From positions 14,296,644 to 14,360,643 of the forward strand of contig CM120643.1 of assembly GCA_051362555.1 (NCBI GenBank): a DNA stretch of 64,000 bases. The letters run 5' to 3'. A program made the translations under genes and the position numbers. Below the pieces are notes generated by a model. The model saw only the letters and a program-made list of their open reading frames with translations, was not told the DNA's origin and made no database searches. Numbering within the stretch: the first letter of the stretch is position 1; each line of letters opens with the position of its first letter. Positions 53,135 to 62,956 of the stretch are shown here, one piece after another. Source of the stretch: Lingula anatina. Taxonomy: Eukaryota > Animalia > Brachiopoda.

Positions 53135-56100
53135 TTTTAAATAAGATTCACAGTACCTACCTTAGCAGGGGTGGGGCCCACACCCAGTCCCATTGTGTCA
53201 CTGACGGCAAAAGCACTTGCCACCCAGGAAGTAATGGTATCTGGCACCTTGGTCTCAAATGATACTCTCCCATCAGACCTTAGTGAGAGAAATGAATTAC
53301 TGTTACATCGAGATACACTGACGACCATGGTCTAGTCACAATTGTATATAAAAACTACAAATCAACATGATAAATCTGAATTTTAATTTATTGAACTTTA
53401 ATTTAAGATAGATCCTACAATGTGAATTTGATGTTTACTTTTTTTTTGATAGTCATTAAAATTTTACTTTACCACATGAAACTTTTTTCAGTAAGAAAAG
53501 TATCAAAACTTTGCAAATGTTATTATAGCATTTAATTCACATATCACTTGTGCTGTAAAATCATAAATATAAAAACAGAAATCATACCAACAAATATATT
53601 GGATAATATACATGTACATGATGACGTTGGTATTTACAATCTATACCATATCCACAGTGCCTCAACTATCACTAAGGGTGTGTTCCCAATGAGAGACTGT
53701 ACTAGGTAGATCAGTCCAACTCCTTGGGAACTCTTGCTGAATGCAACCAGATTAACTGAATAGCATGCACCTCGAGCAGCACAGGAAAATTTATCACCTG
53801 TTACCTGCTCAAGGCGTGGCAGTCAGTTAATCTGATTACATTCAGTAGTCCTCGCGGAATTGGATCTATCTACCTAGTACGATCATAGTTTCCTTGTGAA
53901 CACACCCTTATACTATGGTGCCTGGGTGTGGATAGATATTAATTTTATTATCTAACGGTAGCTACTCACAAATTTCAAACACCCCATTTATTTCAACTGT
54001 AATAGGTATTCTTTAAATCAATTATTTTAGCCCCTTCATTGAAAAAAAAAATGTTTATTTTATAATACTTTTCAGTCATCTTTTTCAGATATTACTAACA
54101 AATCATTGTTTTGGGGGATTCCTTGTTATTTGATTAATTTTGTTGAAATATAGTGGGTAGTTACCATATAACAGAGAGCATGCTGTTAGTTGAGAATAAC
54201 ACAGTTAGCATCAAGTTATTTACTGAGTATAGAGGAAATCAAAACAAAGAAATACATGCTGACAAAAATGGGGACTCCAATTTAGGCATGTGTGTTGTAT
54301 ATCTGCATGTGTGTGCTGTACCAGTAGAGCTGCACGTGTTGTGTATAAGCATGTGTATGTGCATGTGTATATTTGCAAATGACCTTACACGGATGTTTAA
54401 GGCCTCACAAGTATTATTTTAAAAAACTGACTTGGGATGAGAAAAAAATTGCAAGAAAAACTGAGACAGTTGAAAAATTCGGTGAAGAATTAATGCTCTT
54501 GAAAACATAAGGACCTTCCTATTTGTATTCTGTAGGGAAATAACTTAAGTTAAAACCAAAAGTTCTAAAATAATACAATTTAAAATATTATTTTCTGTGG
54601 CTCTGAAACAAGTGGTTAAAATAAAAATGTCAGTGTCCTCAAGTTCTTTTTTCATTTTTAGAATAATTAAGATCTATTTTTATGTTTAACTTGACAATTT
54701 TGTACAAAAATTGTATAAGGGGGTTTATCACATTTTGTAACTTAAAGAAACACGAATGAGTATTGTGTTACTGTTTAAGTAAGCAAAAGCAATATTAATA
54801 AAACTGAAAAGCAACAGATAAGATTTGCAAACAAGCACTGCATCTTAAACAAAAAAGATAGATAAAAAGTTCAATGAATCATAGAATATAGACAACATGC
54901 AAAATAATGTGAAAAAGAATAAATATCAAGGTTAAAAAGTATATTTATGTTTTTTTTTCAAACTGGAAGGAAAAATCAAATGGAAATTAACATCACAATG
55001 TCCTATACAGTCATATGTATTAGTCAAATTCAGTGCATCTGAAAAAGATGAATCAAAAACTATTGAAAGTTTTTAGTTTATAACAATTACTCCTATTCAA
55101 AAAGTGCTAAAAGAAGGCAATGATAATTAGTTATGATGCAATACATAGATCTGTTGATCCACTTGGTTAAAGACTAAGTCTAATATAGTCTATATAGCTA
55201 TTAACTGTTTCTAATCTATGTTCTTGGCTGCTGGGGCAATGATGAATGGAGATGCCTATGTAACCAGTTTAAACAGACTGTTTTTAGTAACTTGAGGACA
55301 TTCATTTTCCACATATAGCATCTTCAGCAGCTTCATGCCCATAATCGACCACAAACAATCAACAGCCATGCATAAAAATACCATGCTTTGTCTAACCTAG
55401 CAGGAATTTACCCAGAAAAAGAATCTCTCCAAAGCCAAGTTTCTGGAAAACTCTTTCTAACTGTTTCAACAGGCTCCAGAGTTTTAGTAATACTTGTGTC
55501 ATCAACTGGATGAAAGGTCTTTTCAGAATCTGTTGCCGCAAAATCGTAGTCCATTTCATCATAATACATGTATTCGAAGGCTAAAAACAAATCAGCCATA
55601 GCTAAATGTATGCTTGAAAGTCCCTAGAAACAGCATGGTCCAAGACTGGCAAGCCAGAACTTAAGAAATATTGAAACAACAAGCACATATTCATTTTTTT
55701 CTAGATTTTTCTGGAATATGTGGTAATCAGGTATGACCAATCTAACCTGCCAAATGTCAACAGATAAAAGAGAAAGGCAAAAAGACAAAAATCTAAGGGC
55801 ATCAGGGGTAGCTTTCAACATGCTATGAAAAATGCTACTAACATTTTTAAAAAACTGTTTGGGACCATATGCACTGACATATACTACAGGATAGGCCACG
55901 TAAACTATAACCAGTTCTAAATGACATAAAAACCACTTTGAGCATCAAAGTTGGACTAAATACCAATTCCCTTGCTGAATTATCAGATTAAACATAGTGC
56001 ATCAATAATTCACTGACTACAGAAGCGCACAATTATGATATTCCCTTCATATAAAAGTTTTTTCTCATATTCCCATTCTATTTTCTAATAACCTACATGT

Positions 56101-62600: not shown

Positions 62601-62956
62601 TTTAAAAAAATGAAAAAAAAAAAGACATTGAAAAAAACACTGAAAGAAAAACACTAACTACTTTAACACAAATTTTGATGAAAAAACAAGGAAAAAAATC
62701 AGTTTCACATTTAGAAGTGGTTGGGGCTGAAATGGTCTGAGCATGGCAAAAAGACACAAGCAGCACAAGTACCCAGCAATTTTGTCAATCCAAAGCCAAG
62801 TTTCTGGAAATTCCTTTCTCACTTCCTCTACAGTCTGGAGGCTGTTGCTGCTTCTGGATTGGTCTGCTTCAGCAACGTTGTCTGCAACTGGCAGCAGAGC
62901 TGCCATTTCAAAAACATTGTCGCCACCATCAGCTCTACGCAACCAGTTGTCTGTCA
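37690..62956 (-). CDS. CD109: CD109-like thioester-containing protein (alpha-2-macroglobulin/TEP family) with predicted GPI anchor; 5' part lies beyond the window end
   Basis: Constitutive exons, 5' to 3': 53161-53278, 52506-52619, 51759-51869, 51232-51360, 50652-50796, 49944-50120 (PTGCGEQNM), 49571-49652 ([19 protein letters not shown]), 46508-46676 (WLTAFV...VIHKDMQ), 46027-46101, 45538-45712, 44766-44974 (GGFRSTQ), 44129-44284 (DTVMGLTAL), 43459-43521, 42455-42627, 41049-41196, 40502-40604, 37690-37874 ([10 protein letters not shown] plus hydrophobic tail). All phases are compatible. One of at least six cassette exons precedes them. The symbol denotes subfamily resemblance, not proven orthology. 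Confidence 0.93.
37996..38622. mobile_element. Non-autonomous element with perfect 54-bp inverted repeats and an extra terminal hairpin
   Basis: 37996-38049 is the reverse complement of 38557-38610, and 38605-38622 folds back on 38558-38575. Confidence 0.75.
40630..40895. repeat. Diverged tandem repeat, two units of about 145 bp, intronic
   Basis: aaggtcatgttatt...ggacagaagg...ttgtctataaaaac occurs twice. Confidence 0.8.
43135..43299. mobile_element. MITE of the CAGGCC(C/T)GTAGC family, 5-bp TSD (aaaag)
   Basis: aaaag|caggcctgtagc ... gctacgggtctg|aaaag. Confidence 0.8.
44558..44754. mobile_element. MITE CCCTTAGCAAAA...TTTTGCTAAGGG with internal TTGCAGCA repeats
   Basis: 12-bp TIR. An internally shorter copy lies at 63421-63491. 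Confidence 0.8.
47426..47755. repeat. Tandem duplication, two units of about 190 bp, intronic
   Basis: ttcaatatgggctctc...aacactgctctgaagtatat occurs twice. Confidence 0.8.
50050..50064 (-). other. Thioester motif GCGEQ
   Basis: GGC TGC GGG GAG CAG on the minus strand, within [10 protein letters not shown]. Confidence 0.97.
53074..53131. repeat. (TA)n microsatellite
   Basis: Direct reading. Confidence 0.95.
55412..55580 (-). CDS. TEP bait-region cassette exon A (169 nt)
   Basis: ttttag|CC..GG|gtaaat; [57 protein letters not shown]. Confidence 0.9.
56358..56557. mobile_element. 200-bp MITE, TA TSD, short relative of the 58833-60863 element
   Basis: ta|tggtaaatacttgaaaatttcgtc ... gactaaattttcaagtttttacag|ta. 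Confidence 0.75.
56855..57011 (-). CDS. TEP bait-region cassette exon B (157 nt)
   Basis: atccag|TC..GG|gtattc; [53 protein letters not shown] second in-phase acceptor is possible 6 nt further in. Confidence 0.88.
57801..57978 (-). CDS. TEP bait-region cassette exon C (178 nt; not in the ORF track)
   Basis: cattag|GG..GG|gtactc; [60 protein letters not shown]. Confidence 0.9.
58507..58618 (-). CDS. TEP bait-region cassette exon D (112 nt)
   Basis: tcctag|GA..GG|gtacta; [38 protein letters not shown]. Confidence 0.88.
58833..60863. mobile_element. About 2-kb non-autonomous TA-TSD (Tc1/mariner-type) DNA transposon with internal tandem repeats
   Basis: ta|cggtaaagtcttgaaaatttcgtcg ... cgacgaaattttcaagactttaccg|ta (perfect 25-bp TIR). 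Internal repeats of about 340 bp are built on cgcgaacgatctcc (59330-60290). No transposase ORF was seen. Confidence 0.85.
61743..61875 (-). CDS. TEP bait-region cassette exon E (133 nt; not in the ORF track)
   Basis: tggtag|GA..GG|gtaata; [45 protein letters not shown]. Confidence 0.88.
62773..62956 (-). CDS. TEP bait-region cassette exon F (184 nt)
   Basis: atgtag|TG..GG|gtactt; [62 protein letters not shown]. Confidence 0.9.

Follow-up and report, generated by a model that had tools for sequence, protein, structure and literature searches.

Twelve tandem, mutually exclusive exons with a conserved C-terminal end (exon 22A-L) have been described in the BgTEP2 gene of the snail Biomphalaria glabrata, along with eight predicted BgCD109 variants (PMC7016707). 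The same article cites six mutually exclusive exons in scallop CfTEP, the use of which depends on sex, tissue and pathogen, and five isoforms of fly Tep2, and some of the scallop and snail variants are restricted by tissue or challenge (PMC7016707). The fly and snail cases are repeated in PMC11765297 and PMC9363628, and mutually exclusive use in Drosophila Tep2 shifts with treatment (PMC11765297). Here, we describe a cluster of this kind in the brachiopod Lingula anatina. It lies on the minus strand of a 64,000 nt stretch of contig CM120643.1 (GenBank assembly GCA_051362555.1, positions 14,296,644 to 14,360,643), the whole of which is called the window. The cluster was noticed in a preliminary description made from the sequence alone, which gave Drosophila Tep2 and a scallop TEP as precedents, and PMC7016707 bears this out.

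We are confident, though short of certain, that the window contains six alternative exons in tandem within one Lingula thioester gene of the CD109/iTEP type and that at least three of them join a shared downstream exon, each productive mRNA likely taking only one. The cluster would yield several predicted glycosylphosphatidylinositol (GPI)-anchored protease traps that differ only in the bait loop. One of the cassettes, C5, is the only one annotated in a partial L. anatina RefSeq protein, here P0001. The six cassettes and the exon that follows them are:

62956-62773, minus strand: cassette C1, 184 nt, a bait variant with the FPETWLW end; AG acceptor predicted
61875-61743, minus strand: cassette C2, 133 nt, open; acceptor predicted, weak
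58618-58507, minus strand: cassette C3, 112 nt, the shortest bait; acceptor predicted
57978-57801, minus strand: cassette C4, 178 nt; acceptor backed by two chain reads
57011-56855, minus strand: cassette C5, 157 nt; used in the RefSeq model (P0001 residues ~252-305)
55580-55412, minus strand: cassette C6, 169 nt; acceptor predicted
53278-53161, minus strand: common downstream constitutive exon, 118 nt, with RNA joints

A six-frame scan of the window found exactly six FPE[TS]WLW motifs on the minus strand, from 62810 to 55449, and all six paralogous exons of the preliminary description were recovered intact, with AG/GT sites and a common end. Each is open, is preceded by AG, ends in [VI]R-x-x-FPE[TS]WLW-x5-G and stops 15 bases past FPE[TS]WLW, at GG/GT. 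The chance expectation for the motif with its donor is approximately 2e-8 per copy in 128 kb (both strands). All six lengths are 3n+1, with acceptors in phase 1 and donors in phase 2, phases on which a reading of the cassettes as symmetric exons was rejected, and exon 53278-53161 starts with the single base that completes the Gly codon of the cassette end. The acceptor of C5 appears to be backed by the RefSeq protein, those of C1, C2, C3 and C6 are predictions, and the pyrimidine tract of C2 is weak (7/14). Ahead of the nine shared residues, the N-terminal parts (15-39 amino acids) are essentially unrelated, as had been described, with p<0.05 against shuffles in 2/15 pairs (uncorrected). A position matrix revealed no seventh or degenerate cassette in the window, the six ends scoring 65-77 bits and everything else 2.2 or less. 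When residues 1-250 of P0001 were used in a tblastn search of the window, only cassette cross-hits were returned, which agrees with the earlier statement that the upstream constitutive exon lies outside it. None of the six cassettes matched Pfam singly (0/6), and a search with C1 among longer proteins returned 0/71 candidates at E<=10, which is weak evidence.

Like the Lingula cluster, BgTEP2 has tandem exclusive exons for a bait-like region with a conserved end and 3n+1 lengths, and the protein sequence cluster that contains BgTEP2 ranks high among the relatives of P0001. By our arithmetic, 11 of the 12 exon lengths listed for BgTEP2 are 3n+1, while the coordinates of the twelfth give 232 nt (Table S4 of PMC7016707). 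BgTEP2 differs in spreading 12 exons across 30 kb, compared with at least six across 7.5 kb in Lingula, in its motif (F[VSAT]ET.LW) and in a protein that stops at the Cys cluster and lacks the hydrophobic tail. CfTEP of Chlamys/Azumapecten farreri (isoforms B-F; Zhang 2009, as cited in PMC7016707) also has six exclusive exons, and its isoforms vary only in a segment ending FPETWLW-x5; it is 42% identical to P0001 and, unlike Lingula, lacks the hydrophobic tail. The exon 5 variants of Drosophila Tep2, from an insect, resemble the Lingula cassettes by description, as five bait-region isoforms produced by alternative splicing.

Three elements lie among or beside the cassettes. A 2 kb element between C2 and C3 (58831-60865) has perfect 27 nt terminal inverted repeats and internal repeats of 54, 79 and 348 bp, a short element related to it is at 56349-56566, and a hairpin element is at 53673-53910. 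All three are likely to be non-autonomous transposons, and cross-pairing of the ends of these transposon-like elements could loop out C3-C5.

Cassette use was assessed in four raw RNA runs picked by species label (X1, X4, X7 and X2), each aligned at approximately 6-25% depth to 53150-59300, a region outside which C1 and C2 lie, so that these two could show only indirectly. Joints were listed from three reads with two starts. At least three cassettes, C1, C4 and C5, are alternatively joined to one downstream exon: a total of 98 reads over the four runs join exon 53278, all of them either at GT-AG ends or identified by letters specific to a cassette. C5 accounts for 68 of these in three of the four runs (5, 0, 48 and 15 in X1, X4, X7 and X2, respectively), C4 for 16 in all four (7, 2, 3 and 4) and C1 for 14 (5, 0, 0 and 9), the last a lower bound. 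The C1 reads were aligned on the look-alike end of C6 and recognised by 15 inserted letters and three C1-matching substitutions. In the three runs that look stranded, first mates are on the plus strand, which corresponds to minus-strand RNA. For C1, C4 and C5, joints to the same exon rule out both that only one cassette is expressed and that the cassettes belong to separate genes. Misassembly or separate gene copies as the source of all six exons is largely refuted, and we give it almost no weight: raw reads tie three cassettes to one exon, only one downstream gene is present, similarity among the cassettes and introns is confined to exon ends and mobile elements, and many animals have the same layout.

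The proportions of C5 and C4 joints differ between X7 (48:3) and X1 (5:7; Fisher p 1e-4, or 1e-3 by read starts), though study, library and population are confounded and tissues are coded; within one study, the contrast between X1 (5:7) and X2 (15:4) is weak (p 0.06). In the C5 bait, the X7 reads also depart from the window at a cluster of five sites (56936-56944 and 57003), changing three residues, while X1 and X2 carry Q>E there, like RefSeq. These differences hint that the bait loop varies between alleles or populations.

The reading frame limits which combinations of cassettes can be productive. With the predicted acceptors, all chains of two cassettes (15/15) stop inside the second cassette. 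So do all chains of four (15/15), though the downstream frame would be restored; chains of three, five and six were computed for frame only. Skipping all six cassettes leads to a stop at codon 48 past the upstream junction, many exons before the end. As all cassettes are 3n+1 and chains meet internal stops, only single-cassette mRNAs can encode the full protein. Transcripts with premature stops would probably be removed by nonsense-mediated decay, and the stops in skipped and chained products make it likely that decay enforces exclusivity. Exactly one cassette would be needed, since each would supply the disordered bait loop and the first strand of the following domain, and frameshifted transcripts with none or several would be removed by decay, atop ordinary splice-site competition. 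Decay does not explain which cassette gets chosen. PMC6071210 gives four mechanisms of mutually exclusive splicing. Steric and U2/U12 exclusion were rejected here, as the introns are 528-3124 nt and all GT-AG; none has the U12 donor consensus.

Several observations weigh against this account. Two X2 reads join the C1 donor to the C4 acceptor at 57978, compared with nine that join C1 to 53278, though the two may be one molecule. The preliminary description expected each transcript to contain exactly one cassette joined to 53278; for coding products the frame imposes this, the two chain reads run against it, and the reads are too short to show it for whole transcripts. No joint was listed in the four runs for C3 or C6, nor indirectly for C2, which lies outside the aligned region, and no upstream joint was seen. 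The reads differ from the window at many sites, indicating that the sampled animals represent other haplotypes or populations. Selection on the FPExWLW core supports the account (pS of 0.72 and pN of 0.02 over 15 pairs, C2, C3 and C6 included), but the core was picked for its conservation, which makes the contrast partly circular. Decay is also said to fail for clusters of more than three exons, as lengths can sum to a multiple of three (PMC6071210). Here, internal stops in every tested four-cassette chain remove the escape from decay argued there.

The missing joints bear on the claim that one gene produces six splice isoforms, which holds for C1, C4 and C5 (3/6) and lacks a listed joint for C2, C3 and C6. 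If only C1, C4 and C5 were live, the others would be silent or decaying duplicates. The weak acceptor of C2 fits this, and, near the point where exon 53278 begins, joints of the three used cassettes explain roughly three quarters of the read depth, which is about what read length leads us to expect (our own estimate). However, C2, C3 and C6 keep an open frame, donor, phase and an unchanged FPETWLW, and the 16 codons around this motif differ from those of the other cassettes at approximately 0.3-1.1 per synonymous site. Expression of the gene is low (2-51 joints per run), the tissues of the runs are coded, and scallop and snail variants are partly tissue- or challenge-restricted (PMC7016707). 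We regard silent duplicates as unlikely. Expression of all six isoforms is inferred, as are GPI anchoring and distinct protease triggers.

The choice of cassette could in principle be set by RNA pairing, and one site in the intron past C6 was considered:

55213..55252, minus strand: putative intronic site able to pair with the WLW codons in each of the six cassettes; an unsupported lead

Under competition of this type, the site, approximately 170 nt past C6, would pair with the WLW codons of the chosen cassette and loop out the downstream ones. Its duplexes with the six ends range from -17.4 to -28.9 kcal/mol, the best being with the most used cassette, C5, and its pairing was reached by 0/15 and 3/30 shuffles in two tests. 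In a shuffle test of 15 metagenome loci, last-intron sites in L015, L035 and L047 (L057 has the same site as L047) beat 30/30 shuffles. On the other hand, in a search for docking/selector pairing in the introns, the best site was reached by 1/12 and 2/12 shuffles, which is not significant, and some twelve other, unrelated sites score equally when both window strands (128 kb) are taken, which puts the expected number for the 3.1 kb searched at approximately 0.3. With neighbouring real sequence as the control, the last intron came out best in only 3/7 loci, by 0.1-1.1 kcal, and did not do so in the window. The signal is absent in L053 (11/30 shuffles), L007 (9/30), L009 and most open loci. The Lingula docking motif is absent from 5/5 complete last introns scanned, a count that leaves out L053 as a duplicate start of L042. 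The L047 site adjoins a block common to L053 and L055, but the block alignments do not span it. The site at 55252-55213 is a lead, not a finding; docking is unsupported against real-sequence controls, and we consider it doubtful as the means of choice. A broader proposal is fainter still. It holds that the bait-exon cluster is ancient and near pan-bilaterian in CD109/iTEP genes, that an intronic docking site, by pairing with the Trp-Leu-Trp codons inside each cassette, determines which exon is used, so that the motif doubles as an RNA selector, with decay as a backstop, and that Lingula is a membrane-anchored lophotrochozoan example. Separately, non-coding blocks of 30-130 nt in the intron past the last cassette are common to L047, L053, L055 and L032; these may be regulatory or reflect mere close kinship.

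Downstream of the cassettes, exon 53278 is followed by the rest of a single gene that continues to 37690:

52505..52619, minus strand: next constitutive exon, holding the premature stop of the skip-all product
49945..50121, minus strand: exon with the GCGEQ thioester motif (~50064-50050); bounds approximate
46508..46675, minus strand: exon with the thioester-domain His (EPGNVIH); bounds approximate
37690..37887, minus strand: last coding exon, with Cys cluster, Gly/Ser spacer, 17-residue hydrophobic tail and stop; 5' bound approximate

The best match of the thioester exon is P0001 (95%), which is labelled CPAMD8 and belongs to a cluster of one sequence. P0001 maps exon by exon to 37693 and is approximately 93-100% identical over exon matches, lower where these run into introns; relative to P0001, the window probably represents a different haplotype or a close congener. 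The domains A2M_BRD, A2M, TED and A2M_recep are all above the Pfam cut-off on P0001, in that order, the N-terminal domains lying outside the window. Its best match in PDB is human CD109 (8S3O, 9FX2; E 1e-162), and its EPGNVIH aligns with PGRVIH of that protein, showing that the thioester-domain His is present. A FastTree tree of 38 proteins (917 columns), drawn without C3, MCR or a true CPAMD8 reference, placed P0001 inside the CD109/iTEP clade (0.96), apart from A2M, and nearest to an Arenicola protein and one other protein (0.98). By sequence, the gene is a CD109-like thioester gene of the CD109/iTEP branch of the A2M superfamily. The tree, the CD109 structural match and the single downstream gene support the earlier reading of one CD109-like TEP gene. 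CPAMD8 has a C-terminal Kazal-type domain. P0001 has no Kazal-type Pfam match at E<=1, and both the tree and the domain list fit the CPAMD8 label poorly, so this label was rejected.

At the C-terminus of P0001, a Gly/Ser spacer precedes 17 residues with a mean hydropathy of 1.94 up to the stop, which form a helix in the AlphaFold model. This tail is consistent with a predicted GPI signal. Among the tree proteins, a hydrophobic tail is kept in Lingula, Arenicola, amphioxus, hemichordate, sea stars, spider and lamprey, and most close molluscan and bryozoan relatives end directly after the Cys cluster. Within the last intron, 38135-38320 (minus strand) holds a helicase-like fragment (Pfam DEAD, E 0.0025, below the cut-off) that is probably a transposon relic.

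The alignment of P0001 to its PDB match places the variable part of the cassettes between KD and H-FPETW of human CD109. By our count, with a signal offset of 21 residues, the flanks are Asp649 and His689, the residues that bound the unmodelled bait (PMC12927315). In the AlphaFold model of P0001, residues 248-281 have a pLDDT below 50 and WLWSEMMA forms a strand. On this alignment and the disordered segment of the model, the cassettes are predicted to encode the bait region, as the preliminary description had proposed. By analogy with human CD109, a protease that cuts the bait would be trapped once the GCGEQ thioester became exposed, and a choice of baits could broaden or adjust the range of proteases caught. 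The earlier picture of GPI-anchored traps with different triggers is supported as far as several cassettes are spliced in; GPI anchoring is consistent with the sequence, and the triggers may differ. Human CD109 has the bait, thioester, GPI anchor and protease trap that are predicted for the Lingula gene, with function shown in human and inferred in Lingula. Unlike Lingula, human CD109 presumably has a single bait sequence.

The isoforms might instead be mainly complement-like opsonins or signalling co-receptors, the variable loop setting which host or microbial protease activates them. The thioester-domain His is compatible with such a role, the molluscan relative BgTEP2 binds parasite surfaces (PMC7016707) and human CD109 also modulates TGF-beta signalling (PMC12927315). 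However, human CD109, the best structural relative, also carries this His, and it inhibits proteases through bait cleavage and conjugation (PMC12927315). The opsonin or co-receptor role is possible, though less probable than not, and it agrees with protease trapping on the splicing, differing only in the downstream role.

Clusters of this type appear to be widespread in relatives of P0001. In all eight isoform sets chosen (8/8), the isoforms differ only in the bait segment, with a common prefix of 666-686 and a common suffix of 716-772 residues. The counts were 11 in Biomphalaria, eight in Mya, seven each in Haliotis asinina and Ruditapes, six in Branchiostoma belcheri, five in A. farreri and four each in Mytilus and Patiria; the sets were hand-picked, each from a single assembly or study. 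The CD109-like RefSeq isoforms of Branchiostoma and Patiria also keep the hydrophobic tail, like Lingula. These two sets are database annotation alone, and our literature search found no paper on them. An exception is Parasteatoda, the two full-length isoforms of which have the same bait segment. When metagenome contigs were scanned for the pattern, at least 147 loci were found, and among those listed 63 had at least two such exons and 41 at least three, with up to nine; the loci were not de-duplicated and many are only 640 bases. In addition, ten proteins from nematodes, molluscs, amphioxus and a bryozoan contain 2-3 FPETW motifs in a row (P0018, P0055, P0061, P0083, P0091, P0123, P0174, P0197, P0208 and P0213). 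They are probably gene models that chain cassettes, and their sequences suggest similar clusters in nematode and bryozoan genes.

The Lingula cluster thus belongs to the known bait-exon clusters of CD109/iTEP genes, and its annotation for brachiopods is probably new. The preliminary description thought the system possibly undescribed in this lineage, which may hold for brachiopods, but the design has already been published in other animals. Its novelty was overstated: the same cluster, exon end and 3n+1 lengths are present in snail BgTEP2, and isoform sets exist in molluscs, amphioxus and sea star. No paper on the Lingula cluster was found in our literature search, which did not reach Gerdol 2018, the main Lingula immunity paper, cited in PMC9835746. 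The locus extends splice-diversified thioester proteins to a brachiopod and corrects a public model with one isoform, a result useful to the specialist rather than surprising. The present analysis contributes evidence from RNA, an argument from the phase 1-2 frame, a broad distribution and a weak lead on docking. Phase 1-2 cassettes combined with decay give a simple, testable account of exclusivity, with which the exon lengths published for the snail also agree. Together with the metagenome arrays, the isoform sets in molluscs, amphioxus and sea star suggest that invertebrate CD109/iTEP genes usually have diversified baits.

Elsewhere in the window, a multi-exon CRAL-TRIO gene, which we take to be alpha-tocopherol-transfer-like, is found downstream of the thioester gene at approximately 14200-18900 (minus strand; Pfam CRAL_TRIO, E 0.0036 on one exon). 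A tandem duplication is present at 21-2377 and 6493-8798, with the copies sharing 77-87% identity, and each copy includes an exon for a single transmembrane-like segment.

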